In this document: piece after piece, positions 4,737 to 40,005 of the stretch
Position numbering within the stretch: the first letter of the stretch is position 1
Layout: each line of letters opens with the position of its first letter
DNA from: Bacteroides sp.
GTDB taxonomy: Bacteria > Bacteroidota > Bacteroidia > Bacteroidales > Bacteroidaceae
Assembly (NCBI GenBank): GCA_031555765.1
Contig: JAVBUC010000063.1
Coordinates: 300 to 64,299, forward strand
Direction of reading: 5' to 3'
DNA: 64,000 nt
The notes under the pieces: generated by a model
What the model was told of the DNA's origin: nothing
The model's database searches: none
The model's input: the letters and a program-made list of their open reading frames with translations, nothing else
Position numbers and translations under genes: made by a program

Positions 4737-6164
4737 ATGAGACGCATTCAATTATTTTTAGCAGGAGTATTTGTAGCTGTAAGCTCACTTTGCGCTCAAA
4801 CCGAAGACTGGCAAGCTGAAATTGCTAAAATCAAAGGAATGATTGCAACGAATACGGTGCAGGCTGTGCAAGAAGCCGACCAGCTGGTCAAAGGAAAAAA
4901 CAAAAAGAATCTGGACTTGTATGCCGCTATCTCTTATTCTTTCCTGGAAAACGGAAAGATCGTCGAGGCCGAAAAGTACCTCGCCATGGGACAGAAAGTG
5001 AATAATAAATCGGCCCTGTTGTCGGTATTGGCTGGTGATATAGCCGTTGCCAAGAAAGAACCGGGCATCGCTTGCCAGGCATACGAACAAGCGATCTATT
5101 ACGATGCAACGTGCGAAGAAGCATACGTCAAATTCGCCGATGTGTACAAGGGCGCAAGCTCACAGATGGCCATTGAAAAGCTGGAACAGCTGAAAGCAAT
5201 GAACCCTCAGAGTGTTGTTGCCGACAAGAAACTGGCCGAAATCTATTATCGGTACAATAAATTCGGTCAAGCCGCTGAAGCTTATGCCAGTTTCATTAAT
5301 AAACCCGAAGCAACCGAAGACGACATCATGAAGTATTCGTTCACGTTGTTTTTGAACAAAGATTTTACCAAGTCACTCGAAGTGGCCCAGATGGGGTTGC
5401 AGCGCAATCCTCGTAAAGCTGCTTTCAACCGGTTGGTTATGTACAACTATACCGATTTGAAAAACTATGACGAAGCTTTGAAAGCTGCCGATGCTTTCTT
5501 CAACGCATCTGACAAAGCCGACTACTCGAGCTTGGACTATAAGTATTACGGACACTTGTTGTTGGCTACTGAAAACTATAATGGAGCTATTGATGCTTTC
5601 AAGAAAGCCATCGACCTGGATCCGAATCAAACCGATTTGTGGCTCTTGGTATCCGACGCTTATGAGCGTGGAAACCAGTTTGTAGATGCCATCAGTACAT
5701 TCAACCAATATTACAGTTCACTGCCTGCTGACAAGCAAACACCCGACTTGCAGCTGCAATTAGGAAAACTGTATTACTCGGAAGCCACCAGCACTGACTC
5801 AGTGGCTGTTACTCCCGAGATGCGGTTGACTGCTTTAACTTCTGCCGATTCAGTATTTACAGTGCTAGCCAATGTGGCTCCGGATAGCTACCTGGGTAAC
5901 CTCTGGCGTGCACGTACCAACTCGGTACTCGACCCTGAAACTACCCAAGGACTGGCCAAACCGTTCTACGAACAAGTGGCCGAGTTGCTGATTAGCAAGA
6001 ACGACCCGCGATACAATCCGGCGTTGGTAGAGTGCTACAGCTACCTGGGTTACTACTACCTGGTGGCTAACAAGATGACTGAATCGAAAGACTACTGGAA
6101 CAAAATTCTGGCTATAGACCCCGCCAATGCTACTGCCAAAAGAGCGTTGGATGGCATCAAATAG
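4737..6164 (+). CDS. Secreted tetratricopeptide repeat protein
   Basis: Signal peptide; repeated TPR-type helices (AFKKAIDLDPNQ, WNKILAIDPAN). Confidence 0.88.
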   Translation: MRRIQLFLAGVFVAVSSLCAQTEDWQAEIAKIKGMIATNTVQAVQEADQLVKGKNKKNLDLYAAISYSFLENGKIVEAEKYLAMGQKVNNKSALLSVLAGDIAVAKKEPGIACQAYEQAIYYDATCEEAYVKFADVYKGASSQMAIEKLEQLKAMNPQSVVADKKLAEIYYRYNKFGQAAEAYASFINKPEATEDDIMKYSFTLFLNKDFTKSLEVAQMGLQRNPRKAAFNRLVMYNYTDLKNYDEALKAADAFFNASDKADYSSLDYKYYGHLLLATENYNGAIDAFKKAIDLDPNQTDLWLLVSDAYERGNQFVDAISTFNQYYSSLPADKQTPDLQLQLGKLYYSEATSTDSVAVTPEMRLTALTSADSVFTVLANVAPDSYLGNLWRARTNSVLDPETTQGLAKPFYEQVAELLISKNDPRYNPALVECYSYLGYYYLVANKMTESKDYWNKILAIDPANATAKRALDGIK

Positions 6165-27538: not shown

Positions 27539-27562
27539 GATAACACTCTCTCGCGACTCTAT

Positions 27563-27595
27563 ATTCCCTTCTCCCTGCCGGAGAAGGGAATTTTT
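27563..27595 (+). terminator. Intrinsic terminator
   Basis: ATTCCCTTCTCC...GGAGAAGGGAATTTTT. Confidence 0.85.
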
Positions 27596-27601
27596 ATTAG
27601 T

Positions 27602-27814
27602 AACTCCAATATCTCGGCTCCCACCGGTGCTACAAAATATGCAGGTTCCATAGTTGGGTATAATATCCTCGATCAAGGCATATATGGGCGGGTATATTCT
27701 TGTAACTAAAGTACCGGCGCAGCTACCGCCCTTCCGCTTATTGGAGGTGGTGATATTGAAGATCCTCTACCTACATGTCCCAGTCCGGGTATACATCCGC
27801 ATCTGCAGCCATAG
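27602..27814 (+). pseudogene. 3' remnant of a GLUG-type/fimbrillin adhesin gene
   Basis: Frame reads NSNISAPTGATKYAGSIVGYNILDQGIYGRVYSCN*STGAATALPLIGGGDIEDPLPTCPSPGIHPHLQP*; no start codon, internal TAA at 27707; resembles Bacteroidales fimbrillin C-termini (from memory). Confidence 0.55.
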
Positions 27815-27822
27815 GCTAAACT

Positions 27823-28380
27823 TAATAGGATTATCAAAATGTCAGGAGTGACATTTTGATAATCCTATGCCCTCTACATTCGCGGCGTTCGTATCCCGAT
27901 AGCTCGTGAGGGGAAAAAATCGCAGCATTTTGCCCTTTGTTTTTTCAGTATGATTGTTTGTTTTCTGATTTTCTATCAAATAGATGTTTGATTGGGCTTT
28001 TTGTAATGACTGGCGTTTAAGTAATCGAAAGGAATGCATTGATTTGATACTGTTTTCTTGCTTGAAAAAGCAAAGAAAAAACTGTAAATAGAAGTTAAAA
28101 GGGGATGAGTGGGAAGTAGAATCTCGTTGTCTAAAGACCTGCAGATCGTTGAGTTAGGGCCAAAGGTCCGTTGCTCTACGACCAACGGTTCTTTCCTCGT
28201 AGAACAAGGGGGCGTTGCTCTACGAGGGAAACCGTATGTTTAACCGGAAATCATCTCGAAAACAAGCTGTTTCTGTATGTTAATGCGGTATATTTATGCG
28301 TCGTATCTCGTAGAAGTGTGTCGGAAGAGAAAATGTGCGTAAGCAATCAGTCCGATATCAGATAATATGGTAAGCTAAAT
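27823..28380. repeat. Non-coding scaffold repeat R1 (44-bp palindrome, conserved blocks, 22-bp array)
   Basis: Colinear with 33251-33827 at offset 5427-5429 over ~500 bp; perfect 20-bp inverted arms at 27825-27868. Confidence 0.85.
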
Positions 28381-28544
28381 ATTGGTTTTTGCTTTCATTT
28401 TAATAATTGGTGCGTTCTTGTACCGGCTGGAAGTAGTCGATTGTCCGCTACCGGCAATGGTGCCGCCGGTGGCGAGGATGTGGATGTGTCTTATTCAGTA
28501 ATTTGGACGCGTTTTGTTCAGCCGTTTGGCTTTTTGAGGCTCGA

Positions 28545-29708
28545 CTACTGTCCAGTAGCTGCGGAGTTCTTATACTGCCGGGGAGTCATGCCTATTTTCT
28601 TCATGAAAGCTGCATGGAAAGAAGACAAGGAGATAAACCCACAATTCTTGGCAACATCCTTCACCGTGGCGTTCCGGTCCTGCCTGATGATCTCCTGTGC
28701 TTTCCTGATGCGATAGTCCTGCACCACCTGACTGAAAGAGGCATTGTACTCGTCGTTAAAGAAGCGCGACAGGTACGTGCGGTTCAGCGGCAGCACCTCG
28801 GCTACATCCATCAGCTTGAAATCCTGGTGCGTATACGGCGAATGCTCCTTCATCCATTGCTCGAAAATCTGTTTGTATTCCTCTACATGGTCGGCATATA
28901 CGCTCTTCAACTGGGCGTTTTCGCCCGTTTCGTATAGCTGTAAAGCCGCTTCCTCGTTCATGGTTTCCTTAAAGAAGTGATCTGAGTACGGGTTCTCCTG
29001 AAACAACCCTTTGTAAAACACCATCGCAAAGCAGAACTGTATCACAAGCTGGTGGACAACGTACGGCCAGTAACCCATATTGAACAACATGCACACAAAG
29101 AAGATGCTTATCCCCCAGTTGCCCAGGGCAAAGTATTTCAGCCAACCGATGTTCATCAGCCAGGTATCGGAGAAGTTATCCCGGCACCAGCGGTCGTAAT
29201 AAAACTTGTGCCGCGTCACTACTGATAACAGCCCGTACAGGTAGCCGAAGATCATGCCGAACAACGGAATGCGGAACCAAACATTGAACGAACCTATCTG
29301 CTCCCGAAAGTCGGCAAAGTTGTCCAGCACAGCAACGGGTTCCTTCCTGATGGCCAGTACAATGAAGTAAAAGGCTGAGATGCAAAACCAGGGAACAAAA
29401 AGCAGGACACCCCGCTTCCAATTGATCCACCCCGGACGAATGGTTTCGATGGAGAAAGGAAGCAACGTAATCACCAGCATGGTGCCGAATATCAGGAAAA
29501 AAGGAGAGAAGAACTCCTGCACCAGTATGGGGGCTCCACCTACATACGTCTGTATCAGCCGGTTCAGGTAATCAAGAAACCACCACAGGAAGGTAGCGGC
29601 AAGTATCAGCCGGGACCGGCTGCCGTTGGCGCGCAGAAACATGAAAACAGCTCCAAGCAAGAATAAGGCGGATGAAAGCGTGTTTAATACAAGAATGAGT
29701 TGTTCCAT
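28545..29708 (-). CDS. Membrane-bound AraC family regulator
   Basis: About 7 N-terminal TM helices; C-terminal NRTYLSRFFN...YRIRKA...VAKNCGF.S.SSFHAAFMKKIGMTPRQY. Confidence 0.92.
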   Translation of the reverse strand: MEQLILVLNTLSSALFLLGAVFMFLRANGSRSRLILAATFLWWFLDYLNRLIQTYVGGAPILVQEFFSPFFLIFGTMLVITLLPFSIETIRPGWINWKRGVLLFVPWFCISAFYFIVLAIRKEPVAVLDNFADFREQIGSFNVWFRIPLFGMIFGYLYGLLSVVTRHKFYYDRWCRDNFSDTWLMNIGWLKYFALGNWGISIFFVCMLFNMGYWPYVVHQLVIQFCFAMVFYKGLFQENPYSDHFFKETMNEEAALQLYETGENAQLKSVYADHVEEYKQIFEQWMKEHSPYTHQDFKLMDVAEVLPLNRTYLSRFFNDEYNASFSQVVQDYRIRKAQEIIRQDRNATVKDVAKNCGFISLSSFHAAFMKKIGMTPRQYKNSAATGQ

Positions 29709-30128
29709 ACAGGTGTTTTAGTTACCTGCAAAAGTAATAAAAAACTTCAGACTACATGCAGTGGGTGTTTGCGTAATCTCTGAATGTATGCAGATTGGCG
29801 TTGAAAACAGTTTACTTGTTGATCGTGGATGAGACTTTTGGACGTCGAGAGGGTGGATGTGGGCGTTCTTAGGAGAAACTTGCAATATGCAGCTTTTTAT
29901 TGTATAAATGTGGTTGCAGATGCCAGCTACAATCGGGCAGATATGCAGATTTTTACAATCCAGCATGTTTTGTACAATCCCGTAATCTTTTTATTTGGTG
30001 ATAGACGGTGTGCGGATTAATTTTGTCTGTACCGAATTTCAGTAAAAAAGCCCGTTTTAGAACGGGCTAAAGAGGTTATCTATATTTACATTACCGAATA
30101 ATAATAATAACAGTAAAAACAAACAATT

Positions 30129-31148
30129 ATGTTAGGAAGAAAATTCAATTCATTACAATCATGCTTAGCTCTCCCAGCAGTGGTATTTACGTTGGTATTT
30201 TTTGCAAGTTGCAGCAAGGACGACAGCTACAACGAGCCGCCGGTACAACCACTTAACTACAGCGATTCCTACTACTGGATTCATGCGGATGCAATGCCCA
30301 CCAAGGAGGTTGACGTGTTTTACGTATATCCCACTGTGTACCTTGGCCCCAACATGTTCGCTGATGTAACCGATCCCGAGGTGCGCGACCGTGCCCGCTA
30401 CATGTACGACGGGCAAGCCACAGCTTTTGAAACCGTGGGTAACATGTACGCCCCCTACTACCGTCAAACCAGTATTGCCATCATGGAGAAAACCACGGAG
30501 GAAAAAGCGGCGGCATTTCACCGGGAGCCGCTTACCGATTTGATAGCAGCCTTTGAGTACTTCATCGACCATTATAACAACGGCCGCCCCTTTATACTGG
30601 CGGCGCACTCGCAGGGAAGCAATATTATGATGTACTTTATGAGCGAATATTTCTCGAATGGGAAATACAAGGATGCGTACAACCGCCTGGTGGCTGCTTA
30701 TCTTATAGGCTACAATGTTACCAACGATTATTTACTGGCCAACAAACACCTGAAGTTTGCTACCTCTGCCAACGACACCCAGGTGATTATCTCGTACAAT
30801 ACCGAAGCGCCGGTTATTGACGGCCCCAACCCCTTAATGGCCGATGGTGTGGGCGTGTGCATTAATCCTCTATCGTGGAGTTGCGATAAGGTTACCGCAC
30901 CCGCTTCTCTCAACCTTGGCACCTATTGTGAGGATGGCAAAGGCGGCTATGTGGCTGGTCCCGGTTTCGCTGATGCCCAGATTACCGACCGCGGCACCAT
31001 AGGCTGCTCTACTGTAAATCCCGACGATTACTTTAACCCTGATATGCCCTTTCCCAGAGGTGTGTACCACGGACAGGATTTTCCTTTTTACTACTTCAAC
31101 CTACGGGCAAATGCTCAGGCAAGGGTAGATGCGTACTTTGGCAGATAA
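30129..31148 (+). CDS. DUF3089 family alpha/beta hydrolase lipoprotein
   Basis: Lipobox FASC; VDVFYVYPT, APYYRQ, GRPFILAAHSQG nucleophile elbow, YHGQDF. Confidence 0.85.
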   Translation: MLGRKFNSLQSCLALPAVVFTLVFFASCSKDDSYNEPPVQPLNYSDSYYWIHADAMPTKEVDVFYVYPTVYLGPNMFADVTDPEVRDRARYMYDGQATAFETVGNMYAPYYRQTSIAIMEKTTEEKAAAFHREPLTDLIAAFEYFIDHYNNGRPFILAAHSQGSNIMMYFMSEYFSNGKYKDAYNRLVAAYLIGYNVTNDYLLANKHLKFATSANDTQVIISYNTEAPVIDGPNPLMADGVGVCINPLSWSCDKVTAPASLNLGTYCEDGKGGYVAGPGFADAQITDRGTIGCSTVNPDDYFNPDMPFPRGVYHGQDFPFYYFNLRANAQARVDAYFGR

Positions 31149-31183
31149 CAAGTAGGGCAGGAACTCACAAAATACTAACTAAA

Positions 31184-31414
31184 ATGCAAAAAATGGAAAA
31201 GTTAAAAGAAAGAGCCATTTACGTGGCACCTTCTATCGAGGTGCTTGAGATGGAACATGAAGGAGGCGTGATGAACAGCAGTTTAAAGCCTTTTGAAGAG
31301 GGTGGCAGTGCCACGATGATTAATCCTTATCAGGGGGGAGGAATCAGGTACAACAGCAGCAGTGCTACCGACCTGGAAGAGTTAATCAATGATATTTTAA
31401 CCATTAAAGAGTAA
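31184..31414 (+). CDS. Small protein with YxxP...E.E.EG motif preceding the fimbrillin gene
   Basis: YVAPSIEVLEMEHEGG...SATDLEELINDILTI; 4-bp gap to the next gene. Confidence 0.75.
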   Translation: MQKMEKLKERAIYVAPSIEVLEMEHEGGVMNSSLKPFEEGGSATMINPYQGGGIRYNSSSATDLEELINDILTIKE

Positions 31415-31418
31415 TGCC

Positions 31419-33107
31419 ATGAGAACAATAAAGTACAGATGGACGGGGTTCATAGTTATGGCAGTCTGGGCGTTGGGTAGCATGTCTTGTACCAACGAGG
31501 AGATAATTACAGAAGCTACTAAGAGCAAAGGCGAGCCATGGACGATAACCGCTACACAAGGTGCCGACGCCGGTACAAGGCTGGGATATACCGAAGAATT
31601 CGATGGCAGTGTTACAGTGAAATGGGCAAAAGACGATGCTTTTACGGTTTTTGGCAGCACAAGCGGTAAGGCGGATTTTACATTGAAGGAGGAAGATGCC
31701 GGTCAGTCGTCCGGAACCTTTACCAGCACCGACACTAACCCCTCAGGTGATTACAAAGCTTTCTTCCCCAAAACTACAGCCGCCTCTTATAACGAGTGTG
31801 TGATGGACCTTACCGGGCAAACCCAAACCATTAATGACGACATGGATCACTTGTCCGACTATGATTATATGACGGGGGCCGTTACATTCAATGGTGACGA
31901 ACCCACCGTGAACTTTACCCACGAAATGCTGATGATGAAGTTTGTACTTACCTTCCCGGCAGCCCTTGCCTCTGGCGAGTCTCTTCAAAGACTATCCATC
32001 GGGGCTGAGAAGGCCGATAAAACAACTCCCGCTTTTTATATAAAGAAAGGAATAGAGGACGCCGATCTGGATGTAAAGGCCAACACACAGGAACTGATAC
32101 TTAACGGTGTGCCATTGGATAGCGACCACAAACTAACTGCTTATATGATGATGTATACATTTAACTTGGCTGAAAATGACAAACTTACATTCATGGTACA
32201 GACTAACCAAAGAGTCTATTCTCATACAGCTACTATTACCATTCCGGGAGGTAAGCAATACGCCCCTGGTAAACGTTACACAGCTACCGCCACGCTTGCA
32301 ACATCTCCCATACAGATGAATACAGTGTTTATTCCCGCAGGCACGTTTATTATGGGGGATAACGAGGTACCATCTTCATCTCCTGCGCATTCTGTTACTT
32401 TGACACGGGGGTTCTATATGGGGGAATGTGAAGTGACAAATACGCAATATGCTGACTTTCTAAATGCGGGCACCGTCTCTGGCACAATTAGCCTTACCCA
32501 AGGTGATGAAACTGATGGAATATATGCAAGTGCTAACGTACTTGGCTCATCACAAAAGCTGGTTTTTGATTGCATGACGGGAACGCGCAGTCCGTGGGGA
32601 GTAACCTATAACACAGTCACATCCCAATGGGAAGCCACATCTGGAAAAGGGAATTATCCTGTGGGCTATGTAACCTGGTATGGAGCCAAGGCTTTTGCCA
32701 GTTGGGCGAAGGGAAAGGTACCTACTAGTGCACAATGGGAATATGCTTGCCGGGCAGGAACAACCACTCCATGGGCTACAGCGACTGGCACCAGTACTGA
32801 TTTGGGTACATATGCTTGGTGGATTTCTAATAGTGGGCTTTCAACGCATCCGGTAAAAACGAAAAATCCCAATTTATGGAACTTGTATGACATGATTGGT
32901 AATGCAGAAGAATGGTGTGACGACAAATCTAGAAATTACACCCCTGCAGCAGTGACCGATCCGGTGGGTAATGGGACACCCATCATACTTCGTCAAAGTG
33001 GCTGTTACGCCAACGATGATGCGTGCAGATCGGCCTTTTACATGACTGTACTAGACCCTAACGATGTCTTCCCCCAGTCTGGATTCCGGATAGCCTTTGT
33101 TCCTTGA
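31419..33107 (+). CDS. Fimbrillin (type V pilus)-like lipoprotein with C-terminal FGE-sulfatase (CLec-fold) domain
   Basis: Lipobox SMSC, GTR cleavage-like motif, W...D..; C-terminal IPAGTFIMG, EVTN.QY, VTWYGA, PTSAQWEYACRAG, LYDMIGNAEEWC, GFRIA. Confidence 0.88.
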   Translation: MRTIKYRWTGFIVMAVWALGSMSCTNEEIITEATKSKGEPWTITATQGADAGTRLGYTEEFDGSVTVKWAKDDAFTVFGSTSGKADFTLKEEDAGQSSGTFTSTDTNPSGDYKAFFPKTTAASYNECVMDLTGQTQTINDDMDHLSDYDYMTGAVTFNGDEPTVNFTHEMLMMKFVLTFPAALASGESLQRLSIGAEKADKTTPAFYIKKGIEDADLDVKANTQELILNGVPLDSDHKLTAYMMMYTFNLAENDKLTFMVQTNQRVYSHTATITIPGGKQYAPGKRYTATATLATSPIQMNTVFIPAGTFIMGDNEVPSSSPAHSVTLTRGFYMGECEVTNTQYADFLNAGTVSGTISLTQGDETDGIYASANVLGSSQKLVFDCMTGTRSPWGVTYNTVTSQWEATSGKGNYPVGYVTWYGAKAFASWAKGKVPTSAQWEYACRAGTTTPWATATGTSTDLGTYAWWISNSGLSTHPVKTKNPNLWNLYDMIGNAEEWCDDKSRNYTPAAVTDPVGNGTPIILRQSGCYANDDACRSAFYMTVLDPNDVFPQSGFRIAFVP

Positions 33108-33128
33108 CCAAGGCATATCACAAAAAAA

Positions 33129-33171
33129 TAATAAAAGAGGTCCGTAAAGGTTCTTAACCGGGCTTTTATTT
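33129..33171 (+). terminator. Probable terminator
   Basis: AATAAAAG...CTTTTATT imperfect stem after the adhesin gene. Confidence 0.5.
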
Positions 33172-33250
33172 GCATTAAAATTAGTTGGAGTATAACTGGG
33201 AGCATTCTCGCTATAGAGGAGCGGCAAAGAAAGCTTATCCGGAACTAAGG

Positions 33251-33827
33251 TAATAGGATTGTCAAAATGTAACTTCTGACATTTTGATAATCCTATACCC
33301 TCTACAATCGCTTCGTTCGCATCAAAGTACTCTGTGTCGATAAAGAATCGCCGCATTTGGGGTTTTGCGTTTTCGAGGTGTTTCTTGTATTTGTGCTTTT
33401 GCTGTTAAATTGATGCCTGATTGCTTCATTTGTAGTTCTGTGCTCTGGTAAATTCGGAATATTGTTTCAATATGCTATCGTTGTATTGAATGGGAATTCG
33501 GAAGAAGAATAGTAAATAAAAGTTAAATTCAGAAGGTTTAAAAGGTTCGGGTCGAATGTTTAAAACATCCGGGGGGTATGTTTAAAACATTCGACCCGTA
33601 TGTTTTAAACATTCGAGCTGTATCTTTACTGCCAATTCTCTTTTTGTTAGCGAGTAAAACTGAATATTTAACCAAAAGTCAACCTGTAAGATGGGTCAAA
33701 TGAATCTTTATACGGCATATTTATACGTAAAATCTCGTAGAAAGGTAAAAGCTTCGAAAATATGCGTTAGTAAAGAGGCACGTATTGTGTATTTTAGAAA
33801 TCTGAAATAGGATTTTGTAAGCTAAAT
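33251..33827. repeat. Non-coding scaffold repeat R2
   Basis: Same conserved blocks and spacing as R1; palindrome at 33253-33296; ATGTTTAAAACAT array at 22-bp period. Confidence 0.85.
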
Positions 33828-33865
33828 GTCATCCGGCATGTTTGCTGTTCCGTCCAGGAGATATT

Positions 33866-35134
33866 TTAATCCCGCATACACCCAATGGGAACCACTAAAA
33901 CCCCATCTTCCCGTCGGTAGGCATATTCTCCACCGGTAAGCACCATAAGGAAAGAAGGACTCCCCATTTTATCGCTATTGATTTTATCTGCCAATGTGAT
34001 TAGATTTTTGGCAGCATCCTCTATTTGTTTGTTTCCTAATTTGACTTCTACTGCTCCCCATTTACCATTGCGCAAACGAACAATCATATCACATTCCAGC
34101 CCGCTTTGATCCCGGTAATGAAAGACATCGCCGTCATTGGCATCGGCATAGATGCGCATGTCACGAATGCATAGTGCTTCGAACAAAAAGCCGAACAAGT
34201 TGAAATCGTCCAGGATGCTATCGGGGTTGGCTCGCAGAACAGCAGTAGCAATGGACGGGTCAACGAAGCACCGTTTGGCCGAAGTCCTTATGGCGGTTTT
34301 GGAGCGCAACGACGGTTGCCAGGCAGGCACATCTTCTACCACAAAGATGCGGCGTAGTGCATTGAGATATATCGCCAGCGTCTTATCCGACAGACTTGCG
34401 TCGTTAGCTTCTACATCCGCCAGAATGGTTTGTTGCGTGGTGAGCGTAGCAATGTTACGCGCCAGTGAACGTAGCAGCACACGAACCCTTTCCGGATTCT
34501 TCTCTACTCCATCCACGCGGCTGATATCCATCTGGATGACCGATTCTACATAGTTTCTGGATACTTGTAAGGCAGCCGGGTTCTTCATTCGGATAGAATT
34601 GGGCCAGCCGCCCCGGCAGATAGCGTAGGCTATATCTTTGATTGTGAAGCTGCTTACGCCTTCAATATCCCGGTTCCCGGCAAATAATGAAGCAAGTGAG
34701 AGGGTTCCGTTAGATTCCAGTGATTCGAAGAGTGACATCGGGCGCATGGTTATTCGGGATATTCGCCCGGTCCCGGTATGTTCCGTTTGATTGTCTTGAG
34801 GCACTGCCGATCCGGTCAGGATGTATTGGCCGACATCTCCGCTCCGGTCTACATCATAACGTACAGCATCCCACAATACCGGAACTGTTTGCCACTCATC
34901 AAGCAAACGTGGCTTCTCTCCTTTAAGTAGTAACGACGGCTTTGTATCAGCCATCGCCCGGTATGCGGCAGCGTTGTCGGGATCCTGAAGGTATACAGCA
35001 CTCTTTGAAGCCTGGTGCCCTGTGGTTGTTTTTCCACACCATTTGGCACCTTCCACCAGAACGGCACCCGAAGATTCCAGCAGGGTACGCAGCATTCGGT
35101 CGTTTATGCGAGGTAGGTATTTTTTATCAGCCAT
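33866..35134 (-). CDS. AAA_14 ATPase with DUF4143 C-terminal domain
   Basis: EGAKWCGKTT, LLDEWQ, ILTGS, GGWP, HYRD..GLECD...AVEVK; start placed at MADKKYLPR. Confidence 0.9.
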   Translation of the reverse strand: MADKKYLPRINDRMLRTLLESSGAVLVEGAKWCGKTTTGHQASKSAVYLQDPDNAAAYRAMADTKPSLLLKGEKPRLLDEWQTVPVLWDAVRYDVDRSGDVGQYILTGSAVPQDNQTEHTGTGRISRITMRPMSLFESLESNGTLSLASLFAGNRDIEGVSSFTIKDIAYAICRGGWPNSIRMKNPAALQVSRNYVESVIQMDISRVDGVEKNPERVRVLLRSLARNIATLTTQQTILADVEANDASLSDKTLAIYLNALRRIFVVEDVPAWQPSLRSKTAIRTSAKRCFVDPSIATAVLRANPDSILDDFNLFGFLFEALCIRDMRIYADANDGDVFHYRDQSGLECDMIVRLRNGKWGAVEVKLGNKQIEDAAKNLITLADKINSDKMGSPSFLMVLTGGEYAYRREDGVLVVPIGCMRD

Positions 35135-35188
35135 AGTCTTAACTGTTGTTTGGTGCAAATATAACTGATTTTGTCTGATTTACAACTG

Positions 35189-35245
35189 ATACTCCGTAAA
35201 ATAGTGTGTTTTTACTCCGTATTTTATAGTTGATTTACTCCGTGT
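35189..35245. repeat. 23-bp-period direct repeats (TACTCCGT)
   Basis: ACTCCGT at 35191, 35214 and 35237, upstream of the ATPase promoter. Confidence 0.75.
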
Positions 35246-35276
35246 TTTATTGTAGTGTGCTTCGAAAGACTGTATC

Positions 35277-36332
35277 TCAATAGTTCGTGTTGAAAAAGAA
35301 TGGTTGGATATCTTTCCAGTCGCTCGTCCGGGTGAGGGCAAGCATCAAGAGCACCCGCGCTTTCTGCGGATTCAACTCCCCGGAAGCGATGAAGCCATAA
35401 CGGGTATCGTCCACTTCGGCTTCCAGGGTGGTAGGCCCGGTAGGTATCCGGGCGGAACGTACTACTTGTATTCCCCGTTCGCGTGCCTGAATCAATAACG
35501 GGAATGCCCGTTGGTGGATATTCCCGTTGCCCACGCCTGCGTAGACTATTCCCTGATACTTGTTAGCCAGTAGCGGAGCCAGCATATCGGCTTCCATACC
35601 GGCATACCCGTACACGATGCCTACCCGGGGGAGTTGCTGCAAGCGGTTGACGTCGAAAAAGGTATGCGGCTCGGCAGGGGCAGGGTGGTAGTACGTGGCG
35701 CGATTGTTGAACACATAACCCAGCGGACCAGCGTTAGGCGACTGGAAGGCTTGTACCTGAATGGTATTGGTTTTCGTTACATCGTCCGCGCCGAGGATGA
35801 GGCTGTTCATCACCACCAATACCCCTCTACCAGTCGATTCCGGTGCGGCGGCGGTAACAACGGCGTTGTACAGATTCAGTGGCCCGTCGGCACTCAGGGC
35901 AGTGGAAGCACGCATGGCACCGGTCAACACCACTGGCTTAGGGCTCTGCACGGTGAGGTGCAGGAAGTAAGCTGTCTCCTCCATGGTATCCGTTCCATGG
36001 GTGATGACGACGCCCTGGACATCGGCACGGGCAAGCAACTCATTCACCCGGTGGGAGAGGACGAGCCAGAGTGAGTCCGTCATATCCTGCGAGCTGACCT
36101 TCATCAGTTGCTCACCGGTGACGTGGGCCACGTCTTGCAGTTGCGGTACGCTTTCCAGTACCGTCTCTATGCCGAGCTGGCTGGGAGTGTACCGGCTGCC
36201 GGTGGCCGACTGTCCGCTACCGGCAATGGTACCGCCGGTGGCAAGTAGGTGGATGTGTGGTTTCTCTGCCGCCATAGACAGGGTGGAGAAGCAGAGTACG
36301 ATGAGCAGTAGAAAGATTCTAATGGTATTCAT
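35277..36332 (-). CDS. ansB: L-asparaginase type II (secreted)
   Basis: Signal peptide, ATGGTIAG, HGTDTMEETAYFL, SADGPLNL, LNPQKAR. Confidence 0.95.
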   Translation of the reverse strand: MNTIRIFLLLIVLCFSTLSMAAEKPHIHLLATGGTIAGSGQSATGSRYTPSQLGIETVLESVPQLQDVAHVTGEQLMKVSSQDMTDSLWLVLSHRVNELLARADVQGVVITHGTDTMEETAYFLHLTVQSPKPVVLTGAMRASTALSADGPLNLYNAVVTAAAPESTGRGVLVVMNSLILGADDVTKTNTIQVQAFQSPNAGPLGYVFNNRATYYHPAPAEPHTFFDVNRLQQLPRVGIVYGYAGMEADMLAPLLANKYQGIVYAGVGNGNIHQRAFPLLIQARERGIQVVRSARIPTGPTTLEAEVDDTRYGFIASGELNPQKARVLLMLALTRTSDWKDIQPFFFNTNY

Positions 36333-36344
36333 AGATGTACGTAT

Positions 36345-37655
36345 TTACATGTCATTCATGGACAAGCTTCTGAAATCGATCCGGTATCCGGAGAATTCTT
36401 TTCGGATAGTATCCGCTTTCGTGTGAAGCACGGTCATATCTATCTTCTTAGGGTTGCGTTTCACCTCTGCCACAATGGCTGTTTTGTCCAGTTCATTGAG
36501 GGCTATCAGGTCGATTTCATTCTCTCCTTTGCTATTCCAATAGCTGCCTATACGTGTCACCCTCTCGCTCTCGGCTATCTTCTCGCGAAAATACTTCTCC
36601 AGTATCAGGCCGCTATATTGTTCGTAATGCTTATCGATGTATTCCCGAAGCATATCGTTCTTCCCCATTTCTAGTAGCGATTGGTTGGGATAAACAAAGC
36701 GAAACCAGAAGTGCAGGTAGTTGTCGCTCAGACTCCAGCGCGCTTTCCTGCTTTCGGGTTTGGAGAACATAGGCTTGGTTCGGGTAATAAGCGAATATTC
36801 CTTTTCCAGATTTACTAAGTAAGCACCTGTGTTCTTGCCGATGATGGAATCGATCTCGCTTTGGGTAGTTTTACCCGAAGCTATCAGCTGCAGGATAGAG
36901 AAATAGGTACCGTACTCCTTGCCGAATTCTGAGATAAGAAAGTCTTTTCCCTCACTGATGAAAGGAGAGTCGGGGCGTACAAATAGGTCGAGCATACCGT
37001 CACGGGTTACTGCTCCTGCTTCCATCAGCAGATCAATGTACTTAGGCACTCCGCCGGTAAGCATATACAGACAGAGAAGATCTTCCGGAGTATGTTTAGG
37101 GTGGAAGTCGGTCAGTATCTTTTTGATAACACTTATAGCGAAAGGGCGCAACACCATCTTCGAGGTAAGGCGGCCGAACAAGGGCTCTTTCCGGTCCTCG
37201 AATATCTTCATCATCATGGAGTAGATGGAGCCGCAGACGATAAAATGCAGGTTGATCTTGTTCTTATATTGATCCCAGAGGTTTTGTGCATCGCTGAAAA
37301 TAGATGAATTGATATTGGCGAACTCCTGGAATTCGTCGATGATAAGTGTGTAATGCTCGCGGGTGGCAAAAATGAGTAGTTGCTCAAACAAATCCCTGAA
37401 TCGGGTGATGGTGCCGAATATCTGTATGCCCAAAGCTTCGGTGACGTCTTGCTGGAATTGGGCGCACAACAAAGATTCGCTTTTGCGCGAAACGAATAGA
37501 TACAGGTATCGCTCGTTTTGCACGGACTCAAGCAGGAGAGAGGTCTTGCCGATACGTCGACGCCCTACCATGACGGTAAAGCAGGCGCTCTTTTTGGATT
37601 GTTCCGAGTGTAGCTGAAGTAACTCTAATTCTTTTTCTCGATTGTAGAACTTCAT
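36345..37655 (-). CDS. ATPase (ATPase_2) with DUF234 restriction-endonuclease-like C-terminus
   Basis: FYNREKEL, GRRRIGKT, IIDEFQ, GGVP, EIDLIA...AEVK. Confidence 0.88.
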   Translation of the reverse strand: MKFYNREKELELLQLHSEQSKKSACFTVMVGRRRIGKTSLLLESVQNERYLYLFVSRKSESLLCAQFQQDVTEALGIQIFGTITRFRDLFEQLLIFATREHYTLIIDEFQEFANINSSIFSDAQNLWDQYKNKINLHFIVCGSIYSMMMKIFEDRKEPLFGRLTSKMVLRPFAISVIKKILTDFHPKHTPEDLLCLYMLTGGVPKYIDLLMEAGAVTRDGMLDLFVRPDSPFISEGKDFLISEFGKEYGTYFSILQLIASGKTTQSEIDSIIGKNTGAYLVNLEKEYSLITRTKPMFSKPESRKARWSLSDNYLHFWFRFVYPNQSLLEMGKNDMLREYIDKHYEQYSGLILEKYFREKIAESERVTRIGSYWNSKGENEIDLIALNELDKTAIVAEVKRNPKKIDMTVLHTKADTIRKEFSGYRIDFRSLSMNDM

Positions 37656-37845
37656 ATCGTAGTTATTTTAATGAAGATTATCTTAATGGACATTACAAAA
37701 ATAAACATTATTCGGATAAGTTGCTCAAAACATGGGATTTATTTTCAATCATCTCCTTTTCGGCACGTACTTCTCTTTTCTTATCGGCGTATAAGTGCTC
37801 CTAAATCACTACCTTTGCACCGAAAAATCAAAAAAGACAACGAAA

Positions 37846-39801
37846 GTGATTTCTGTAGAACAACTCAAAGTGGAATTCAATGCGACGCCGCTCTTCGAAG
37901 AGGTATCGTACATCATTAATAAGAAGGACCGCATCGCCCTGGTGGGCAAGAACGGCGCAGGCAAATCGACCATGCTGAAGATACTGGCCGGGATGCAGAC
38001 ACCCACATCGGGTACGGTAGCCGTTCCGCGCGACACCACCATTGGCTACCTGCCACAGGTGATGATCCTGACCGACAACCGCACGGTGATGCAGGAAGCC
38101 GAACAGGCTTTCGACCATATCTTCGACCTGCAGGCCGACCTGGAACGGATGAACCGGCAGCTTGCCGAGCGTACCGACTACGACTCGGAGGAGTACCACA
38201 AATTGATAGACCGCTTTACGCATGAGAACGACCGCTTCCTGATGATGGGTGGCACCAACTTCCAGGCCGAGATAGAGCGTACGCTGATGGGACTCGGGTT
38301 CGACCGGAAGGATTTCGACCGCCCTACCTCGGAGTTCAGCGGTGGATGGCGGATGCGTATCGAGTTGGCCAAGCTCCTGCTGCGCCGTCCCGATGTGCTG
38401 TTGCTCGATGAGCCTACCAACCACCTCGACATCGAAAGTATTCAGTGGCTCGAAACCTTCCTCGCCACCCGCGCCAATGCGGTGGTGCTGGTGAGTCACG
38501 ACCGCGCCTTCCTGAACAATGTCACCACCCGCACCATCGAAATCAGTTGCGGACAGATCTATGACTACAAGGTAAAGTATGACGACTTCGTGGAGCTGCG
38601 CCGGGAACGTCGCGAGCAACAGATGCGTGCCTACGAGAATCAACAGAAACAGATACAGGACACGGAGGACTTCATCGAACGCTTCCGCTACAAAGCCACC
38701 AAGGCGGTGCAGGTACAAAGCCGCATCAAGCAACTGGAAAAGATAGACCGTATCGAGGTGGACGATGAGGACAACTCGTCGCTTCGCCTCAAGTTCCCGC
38801 CTGCCAGCCGCAGCGGCAGTTACCCGGTGATCTGCGAAGATACGGAGAAGGTATACGGACAGCATGTGGTGTTCCACGACGTGAACCTCACCATCAACCG
38901 GGGCGAGAAGGTGGCCTTTGTGGGCAAGAACGGCGAAGGTAAGTCCACCCTGGTAAAGTGCATCATGAACGAGATACCGTTCGGCGGCAAGCTCACCATC
39001 GGGCACAACGTGCAGATAGGCTACTTCGCCCAGAACCAGGCACAGATGCTGGACGAGGGTTTGACAGTGTTCGACACCATCGACCGGGTAGCCGTGGGCG
39101 ACATCCGGTTGAAGATACGCGACATTCTCGGTGCTTTCATGTTTGGCGGTGAAGCGTCGGACAAGAAGGTGAAAGTGCTCTCGGGCGGTGAACGTACCCG
39201 TCTGGCCATGATCAAGCTGTTGCTGGAGCCGGTAAACTTCCTCATCCTCGACGAACCGACCAATCACCTCGATATGCGCTCCAAGGATGTGCTGAAGGAT
39301 GCCATACGCGAGTTCGACGGGACGGTGGTCGTGGTGAGCCACGACCGGGAATTCCTGGACGGGCTGGTGACGAAGGTCTACGAGTTCGGCAGTGGCCTGG
39401 TACGCGAACACATGGGCGGCATCTATGACTTCCTGCAGAAAAAGAAGATAGAGAGCCTGAACGAATTGCAGAAAGGACCGTCACTGTCGGCATCGCCCAC
39501 CGCCGATGCAGCTTCGAAGAGTGCCGAACCCACCCAGGCATCGGAAAACAAACTCTCTTACGAAGCACAGAAGGAGCTGAACAAGAAACTCAAGAAGATA
39601 GAGAAACAAGTGGCTGACTGCGAGGCGGAAATAGAACAGACGGAATCGGCCATCGCCATCCTGGAAGAGCAAATGGCTACTCCCGAAGGGGCTGCCGATA
39701 TGACGCTGTATGAGCGTCACCAGAAATTGAAGCAGCAACTGGCCCGTGCCGAGGAGACCTGGGAAGCAGCGTTGACAGAGCTGGAAGAACTGAAAGGATG
39801 A
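37846..39801 (+). CDS. ABC-F family ATP-binding protein
   Basis: Two NBDs (GKNGAGKST/FSGGW, GKNGEGKST/LSGGE), DEPTNHLD twice, C-terminal coiled coil; probable GTG start after promoter TACCTTTG at 37810. Confidence 0.93.
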   Translation: MISVEQLKVEFNATPLFEEVSYIINKKDRIALVGKNGAGKSTMLKILAGMQTPTSGTVAVPRDTTIGYLPQVMILTDNRTVMQEAEQAFDHIFDLQADLERMNRQLAERTDYDSEEYHKLIDRFTHENDRFLMMGGTNFQAEIERTLMGLGFDRKDFDRPTSEFSGGWRMRIELAKLLLRRPDVLLLDEPTNHLDIESIQWLETFLATRANAVVLVSHDRAFLNNVTTRTIEISCGQIYDYKVKYDDFVELRRERREQQMRAYENQQKQIQDTEDFIERFRYKATKAVQVQSRIKQLEKIDRIEVDDEDNSSLRLKFPPASRSGSYPVICEDTEKVYGQHVVFHDVNLTINRGEKVAFVGKNGEGKSTLVKCIMNEIPFGGKLTIGHNVQIGYFAQNQAQMLDEGLTVFDTIDRVAVGDIRLKIRDILGAFMFGGEASDKKVKVLSGGERTRLAMIKLLLEPVNFLILDEPTNHLDMRSKDVLKDAIREFDGTVVVVSHDREFLDGLVTKVYEFGSGLVREHMGGIYDFLQKKKIESLNELQKGPSLSASPTADAASKSAEPTQASENKLSYEAQKELNKKLKKIEKQVADCEAEIEQTESAIAILEEQMATPEGAADMTLYERHQKLKQQLARAEETWEAALTELEELKG

Positions 39802-39811
39802 TTTGTAGTTC

Positions 39812-39884
39812 ACCACAGAGTCACACAGAGTTCCACAGAGTTTTTTATTCTCTTACTCTGTGGAACTCTGTGTGACTCTGTGGT
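39812..39884. repeat. REP-like hairpin with perfect 30-bp arms made of CACAGAG units
   Basis: ACCACAGAGTCACACAGAGTTCCACAGAGT, 13-nt loop, exact reverse complement. Confidence 0.9.
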
Positions 39885-40005
39885 AAATAAAACACCATAA
39901 ATATATTGTTAGAAAACCTTTATATACGCAAATTTGTTTTTATCTTCGCAAACTATATTTGGCGAATATTTATTCGCCGAACGATCAATAAACCATATTT
40001 ATAAG

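Follow-up and report, generated by a model that had tools for sequence, protein, structure and literature searches.

A dispersed intergenic element of conserved spacing in Bacteroides and its possible role as a structural chromosome site

What kind of DNA keeps its motifs at fixed distances while the bases between them drift? The question is raised by two non-coding repeats in a 64,000-nucleotide stretch of a Bacteroides sp. genome (assembly GCA_031555765.1, contig JAVBUC010000063.1), the whole of which we call the window and to which all coordinates given without a contig name refer. A sequence-only reading of the window had described these repeats, R1 and R2, as scaffolds bracketing an adhesin cassette that might be gained, lost or exchanged. 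Our analysis of the genome of the window (G000) and its relatives identifies R1 (27824..28403) and R2 (33252..33830), both on the plus strand and delimited by a family model, as copies of a dispersed element of about 570 bp, here termed R, and not as cassette borders. As to the role of the element, our preferred reading, to which we give a probability of about 0.4, is that each copy may serve as a protein-wrapped scaffold organising local topology between operons, one that spreads slowly and is kept by the host.

A dispersed element of fixed spacing

As a description of the pair itself, the sequence-only reading was accurate. The global alignment score of R1 and R2 is 62, far beyond that of 200 shuffles (-129 +/- 10), which bears out their status as direct repeats, and their ungapped identity is maximal at the constant offset of 5427-5429. 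The conserved islands are present with diverged bases between them, the pair being only 50.8% identical (40-base flanks included), and no frame is open across either copy. Protein coding was considered for a short minus-strand open reading frame (ORF) alike in R1 and R2 and rejected, as the ORF is lost in other copies and has no Pfam match.

The profile scan proposed for finding further copies proved productive. Iterated nhmmer searches recovered 38 full-length copies in G000, R1 and R2 included and thus 36 beyond the window pair, together with one copy at a contig edge and two truncated ones. All 38 are intergenic, none being overlapped by a called gene, and their mean pairwise identity is 42% (range 32-67%), a level of divergence that makes R invisible to identity-based repeat finders.

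Each copy is built from the same parts. The left end carries two 13-bp motifs of the TGWCA-N3-TGWCA type (M; the left-end pair being M1 and M2), set 17 bases apart and followed by a CTCTACAATCG block and about 240 bases of spacer that hold two weaker M motifs. The centre is a tract of four to five palindromic units with a period of 22, and the right arm contains TGYATA motifs, TAGA, GTTA and two further M motifs 30 bases apart. Motif mapping places M1 and M2 at 27832..27861 in R1, where they form the palindrome named in the earlier reading, and at 33260..33289 in R2; the left arms, with their CTCTACAATCG block, weak M motifs and apparently neutral spacers of fixed length, follow at 27862..28104 and 33290..33532. 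The dyad-symmetric tract of R1 (28105..28220) is of the TTGCTCTACGA flavour and that of R2 (33533..33648) of the ATGTTTWAAACAT flavour, flavours varying among copies and species while the period stays constant. The right arms (28221..28403 and 33649..33830, like the left ends and left arms on the plus strand) are strongly phased in AA/TT at 10.5 bp.

The spacing of these parts is rigid. Since pairwise indel counts are unreliable below 70% identity, we replaced them by anchored spans: among the 38 copies of G000, 22 span 547-553 bases, 12 span 558-562, two span 570-571 and one each spans 540 and 515, so that the differences amount to 0-3 bases or to full turns of the helix. In a second species group of the same genus, 37 of 38 elements (orthologues included) span 483-487 bases and one spans 507. 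An alignment-free measure gave the same picture, with 217 of 243 motif-to-motif distances deviating by at most 2, by 9-12 or by 20-23 bases and a single one by 3-8, whereas a neutral simulation placed 38% of copies near a multiple of the turn. Across 71 aligned copies of G000, G069 and G042, AA/TT power peaks at 10.6 (0.44) in the left arm and at 10.5 (1.36) in the right, and the peak at 10.5 recurs in the 38 second-group copies, again including orthologues. The maximum in random intergenic sets is 0.043, roughly one tenth of the signal in the weaker arm, and the phasing of the right arm lies above the 75th intergenic percentile in 97% of the 38 copies.

Orthologous copies, recognised by their common flanks, show how this geometry has fared in place. 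They differ by 496 substitutions and 11 indels, of which nine measure 1 nt, one 2 nt and one 22 nt; in control intergenic DNA taken from another pair of species the corresponding figures are 1139 and 71. In a conservation test on sets of nine and six pairs, which are partly non-independent, columns conserved among paralogues change 2.5-3.5 times less between orthologues than do variable ones with a matching base class: of 865 cells in conserved A/T columns 72 were changed, compared with 166 of 784 in variable columns (p 9e-14), the counts between G000 and G069 being 60 of 451 and 317 of 692. In one pair the flank is 92% identical and the element 63%, with a net length change of 1; spacer composition, moreover, tracks local strand skew (rho 0.65). 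Motifs and length are thus kept while the spacers drift, and therefore selection acts on the copies in place, which together with the rigid spans and the phasing upholds the earlier proposal that spacing is selected over sequence.

Period-21, -22 or -23 tracts also occur apart from complete elements. G000 holds 146 raw dyad-symmetric tracts of these periods in at least eight flavours (examples at C44:31089, C1:10458, C8:53992 and C11:40014); a single tract falls within strong genes. Comparable tracts were seen at loci in a number of further Bacteroidales genera. The TTCCACA flavour (19 sites in G000) belongs to a fold-back element of about 450 bases. A tract-only element of about 120 bases (G000 C9:41247-41365; L175-L180), about 90% identical across several G069 loci, is possibly a younger family.

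A possible structural role and its rivals

Sequence drift combined with spacing locked to helix turns makes a protein-wrapped structural site of the chromosome a likely interpretation, and the spacing, phasing and conservation likewise support the earlier suggestion of a multi-protein DNA site rather than a gene. In the scaffold model, protein dimers would occupy a single helix face at the M motifs and at the tract, and the phased arms would bend around the resulting complex. One of the binders may be a host factor that also recognises M in its position upstream of chaperone promoters. New copies would arise rarely, through duplication with variable flanking DNA, and would then be retained for a benefit to the host such as supercoil handling, looping or insulation. 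Besides the geometry, phasing, tract and motifs, the model draws on the gain and loss of copies between species and on their ragged ends.

The hint of a host binding protein comes from the occurrence of M before chaperone promoters. The motif is 37-fold denser in R (1.04 per kb) than in the remaining intergenic DNA (0.028 per kb), and outside R it stands upstream of the TGGCA..TTGC-type promoters of groES, clpB, dnaK, htpG and grpE in G000, genes presumptively named from their N-terminal sequences. It scores at least 10 upstream of all five chaperone genes examined, while scores of at least 9 are found in 3.7% of upstream regions, and it also precedes groES in G041, G339 and G075 (in relatives, groES and grpE were identified by Pfam). 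The chaperone loci (G000 C65:22017, C74:30823, and upstream of C40:16707, C75:61339 and C75:73314; L377-L386) combine a sigma-54-like promoter with an upstream TGTCA-N3-TGWCA, which is weak or displaced in G043; we propose this sequence as a candidate heat-shock operator.

Several observations weigh against the scaffold model. The element is dispensable, 48 of 100 same-genus genomes being without a match and the complete or near-complete G043, G189, G191 and G194 yielding nothing below E 0.004, and copy number ranges from about 9 (G002) to about 50 (G193). Its lineage-specific bursts, with identities of 75-88% in G042 and up to 91% in G193, would also fit a selfish element. Relative to replication the copies of G000 are not biased in orientation (18 leading, 13 lagging, 7 unclear), nor do they clearly favour convergent genes (6/36); a minus-strand excess is seen in G041 and is absent in G002. 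Most second-group copies carry TAAAAA.AGAAC-type end motifs in place of M, while the groES promoters of G041 and G339 retain M, and therefore no single host protein can account for every copy. Left-arm phasing falls short of significance per copy (p 0.09). Finally, the indels of 11 and 22 bases are for the most part situated within the tract or next to it, where repeat slippage would yield the same sizes, and only two 11-base insertions in G000 are clearly outside it; the near-constant length of the arms is, however, independent of tract slippage.

The rival that survives best is a selfish, non-autonomous mobile element (a transposable element of the miniature inverted-repeat type (MITE), cargo of repetitive extragenic palindrome (REP) doublets known as REPINs, or a mimic of a transfer origin), whose geometry would serve an enzyme acting in trans. 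We consider it unlikely, at odds of the order of one in five. As to the distribution of R, models built from sequence only match 36 of 60 and 52 of 100 other same-genus genomes, counts that include tract-only matches and genomes that supplied training sequences; at family level 4 of 120 genomes matched, and order-wide one of 120 did, by a weak tract-only match, in a search that scored 16 candidates per genome and that distant forms may escape. A genome of another genus, G193, has 52 matches at E<=0.05, with 22 copies within 400 kb, typically 10-15 kb apart. Subfamilies at unrelated loci, those particular to G042 included, are what a mobile element would produce. One G042 copy occupies a site that is empty in G000 and is flanked by a duplication of about 8 bases (one case, two empty-site comparisons), and the terminal M motifs, present at both ends, are roughly inverted in G193. 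REPs and 7-mer repeats are often nested with the G193 copies, and 27 of the 31 REPs of GTAG type lie within 250 bp of an R copy.

Set against this, the 38 intact copies far outnumber the two truncated and one contig-edge copies, their mean identity is low, and orthologues are under selection in place. The ends in G042 are ragged, and no common target-site duplication is apparent by eye in the G042 and G193 alignments. The Y1 transposase family PF01797 is present in three of five carriers but was not found in the near-complete G041 and G193; no transposase recurs among 70 plus 102 neighbour genes, which gave one IS66 and two integrase matches; and no autonomous transposon with the ends of R was seen among the neighbours or in a self-search of G193. 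Narrow pattern searches of plasmids (two queries), phages (one), viral contigs (two patterns) and metagenome contigs (one pattern) returned no R match. In the cluster at G193 C1:625000-1025000 (L305-L324) we also observed GTAG-type REPs and 7-mer repeats gathered at R ends and patchwork variants common to several copies.

Gene turnover runs right up to the ends of R, and we therefore considered a second rival, a generalisation of the earlier cassette idea in which the complex is a gene-capture or recombination platform that promotes insertion and loss of DNA beside its ends. In five ortholog pairs the breakpoint is found 0-40 bases beyond the right end of R, and in three it is found 220-300 bases beyond the left end; breakpoints thus fall outside R, contrary to the expectation of breakpoints within it, and selection preserving R would by itself drive them to the edges. 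Synteny with G069 was kept at 0 of nine classifiable sites (11 examined, two without a match on either side) against 21 of 57 control regions (p 0.048), but the difference is not significant when long intergenic regions only are taken for comparison (6/24, p 0.16). The gap between metG and an acyl-CoA synthetase gene holds R in six genomes, in opposite orientation between two species groups, and 0-17 kb of variable cargo beside it (L023, L164, L050, L365-L368), yet the metG locus also varies in G062 and G339, which have no R there. No att-like duplication was found in cargo beside R, there is no fixed crossover point, and the left and right arms mostly have the same closest relative, so that no clear hybrid emerges. 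Genes of low third-position GC content flank R in 11% of cases and other long gaps in 12%.

The neighbouring genes are highly mixed in kind. The 70 genes nearest the other 36 copies include cysK, nadB, mnmG, dapF, purF, pdxB, metG and ychF as well as SusC, sigma factors and glycosidases, and the clustered copies of G193 stand between mostly core genes and form no cargo array. Two gene types are enriched beside R in post hoc comparisons, namely AAA_14/DUF4143-type ATPase genes (4 of 72 flanking genes vs 5 of 823) and the lipoprotein module of the window (3 of 72 vs 0 of 823). The module nevertheless adjoins 3 of 38 copies, so that 35 flank no such gene, and 7 of 10 modules occur without R, and an adhesin cassette-exchange system as such is not supported; we rate the broader capture platform as less probable than a selfish element. 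The ATPase genes were seen in the window (33866-35158) and at L003, L018 and L020, and the type recurs beside R in relatives. The lipoproteins form a ten-member family with variable C-terminal domains, each gene preceded by one for a 64-76-aa peptide (window 31184-33107 and nine G000 loci).

It is less probable again, and in our judgement distinctly unlikely, that R serves the chaperone genes' sigma-54 activator as a remote enhancer or a titration array. The presence of M upstream of those genes is what recommends the idea, and M is presumably akin to the GT-N7-AC sites of NorR, which wrap DNA. Sigma-54-like promoters within 250 bases of R are, however, not in excess (16% vs 13% in controls), the end motifs are replaced in most second-group copies, and G075 has the promoter motif while its R search yields tract-type matches only; the enhancer would also leave the tract and the TGYATA motifs unaccounted for. 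A structured non-coding RNA family, for which the conserved length and a foldable tract with compensatory changes might speak, is very improbable given that covariation outside the tract does not leave the range of shuffles (best value 0.156, with null maxima of 0.13-0.16) and inside the tract is equalled by direct-repeat covariation at offset 22, that arm folding (z averaging -0.3 to -0.7) is no better than that of shuffles, that RNAalifold predicts no pair and Rfam gives no family at threshold on any element, and that a 10.5-base period is a property of DNA. In assembled contigs of one RNA study (X2), R1 and R2 lie inside low-depth contigs spanning their neighbours; the R beside metG has no RNA contig there while DNA contigs are continuous, a hole in one study that we do not count as evidence. 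Readings as dif/Xer sites, DnaA boxes or sigma-A promoters were set aside after a poor fit by eye to consensus sequences.

The protein-wrapped scaffold therefore remains our preferred reading. A more ambitious form of it, in which R is a family of self-spreading, host-selected nucleoprotein particles of about 570 bp in Bacteroidaceae, partly assembled by the sigma-54 chaperone activator, anchoring domains and setting the sites of foreign-gene gain and loss, strikes us as a long shot, about as doubtful as a selfish element.

The window locus

R1 and R2 lie in a variable island (27585..37800) between nucleotidyltransferase and ABC-F genes. Sequencing runs containing this DNA carry an invertebrate gut label. 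Comparison with relatives, which the earlier reading had recommended, was informative: neither G042 nor G041 has the R1/R2 island, and in G069 it is rearranged, that genome holding one R there and carrying a 3.9-kb araC and lipoprotein block at the left end of another R copy. The idea of an array of modules gained, lost or swapped thus stands as far as the variability of the locus and the enrichment of the lipoprotein are concerned, but not in respect of a consistent cargo.

Between the two copies lie an AraC-type regulator with an HTH_18 match (28545..29708, minus strand) and, on the plus strand, a DUF3089 gene (30129..31148), a 76-aa peptide gene without a Pfam match (31184..31414) and a gene for a 562-aa lipoprotein (31419..33107), the domain assignments being from Pfam. 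The regulator, DUF3089 and the small peptide are as first described, but the label fimbrillin or adhesin was given by resemblance: residues 301-559 of the lipoprotein match FGE-sulfatase and its N-terminal half has no Pfam match at E<=0.1. No integrase or transposase family was matched among the window ORFs scanned, a set that left out minor overlapping ORFs, in agreement with the earlier statement. A palindromic small repeat of about 85 bases at 39800-39890 has many copies in G069 and G042.

Ahead of R1, at 27602..27814 on the plus strand, there is what weak evidence suggests to be the broken 3' remnant of a lipoprotein gene. It has an internal stop, its first piece weakly resembles the C-terminus of a paralogous G069 lipoprotein (12/27, E 6e-4), and its second piece has no match to that protein. 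On this evidence, and since the left arms of R1 and R2 are closer to each other (63%) than to those of any other copy, the pair is best read as the likely outcome of an old local duplication that took in a lipoprotein gene as well as R, R1 then having outlasted its gene.

A search for an excised circle or an R1/R2 hybrid junction gave contig joints at 28207-33651 and 35373-27857 (depth 7), which were rejected when they proved to carry G069 sequence, and a skip from 27539 to 37841 that fits the empty site of a relative. Contigs drop rare variants, and the negative result for rare circles is limited accordingly.

Significance and comparison with known systems

The geometry of R is maintained across genera despite 42% identity. 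Bacteroides are dominant, genetically tractable gut bacteria in which chromosome-organising DNA sites seem to be little known, and the R family provides a defined, deletable set of 10-50 sites. In addition, the chaperone regulon gains a candidate operator, and many places where genes turn over are marked by copies of R.

The cer/psi sites, attP with its accessory sequences and sigma-54 enhancers are familiar arrays of dimer sites in which only whole-turn changes of spacing are tolerated. R differs from these in its dozens of chromosomal copies and in that no crossover core, recombinase gene or linked sigma-54 promoter was found with it.

We found no description of R in the literature searched, the coverage of which stops short of supplements (possible catalogues of MITEs or REPs, such as that of PMC11602168), and R is not described in the excerpts covered of PMC3733652, PMC5771137, PMC11697453 (on FopS small RNAs), PMC3162934 and PMC11840125. 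The closest parallels for its separate features, taken from excerpts of the papers cited, are the following. Strong gyrase sites share a helically phased A/T pattern around a centre that has been read as wrapping, but the gyrase motif is degenerate and 130 bases long, whereas R has four times that length and carries specific dyad motifs (PMC6379681). REPs, bacterial interspersed mosaic elements (BIMEs) and REPINs form, like R, persistent populations of palindromic mosaics dispersed between genes; gyrase binds and cuts BIME-2, and according to modelling such persistence requires a benefit per copy (PMC6379681, PMC8049555). REPs are, however, tagged hairpins of 20-40 bases moved by REP-associated tyrosine transposases (RAYTs), while R has about 570 bases with phased arms that are not hairpins and is not built of such 20-40-base units; in R the GTAG tag is mostly missing, occurring in one tract flavour only, and the Y1 transposase was not found in two of five carriers.

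The BrickBuilt MITE of Porphyromonas gingivalis (Klein et al. 2015, PMC4596501), a Bacteroidales element with about 19 intergenic copies among mixed neighbours, resembles R in its plan of leader, central tract of 23-nt repeats and tail, with about 300 nt each. BrickBuilt has IS5-type terminal repeats, 1 to 22.8 units and often partial arms, and is restricted to P. gingivalis and P. gulae. R, by contrast, spans genera and has about 4-5 units, complete arms, fixed helical spacing and 42% identity, with no IS5-type ends, and the target-site duplication characteristic of a MITE was seen in a single case of about 8 bases. The comparison is one of layout and not of sequence homology. On the best reading of these likenesses, R would stand closest to BIME and REPIN populations in role, from which it differs in anatomy, and closest to BrickBuilt in layout.

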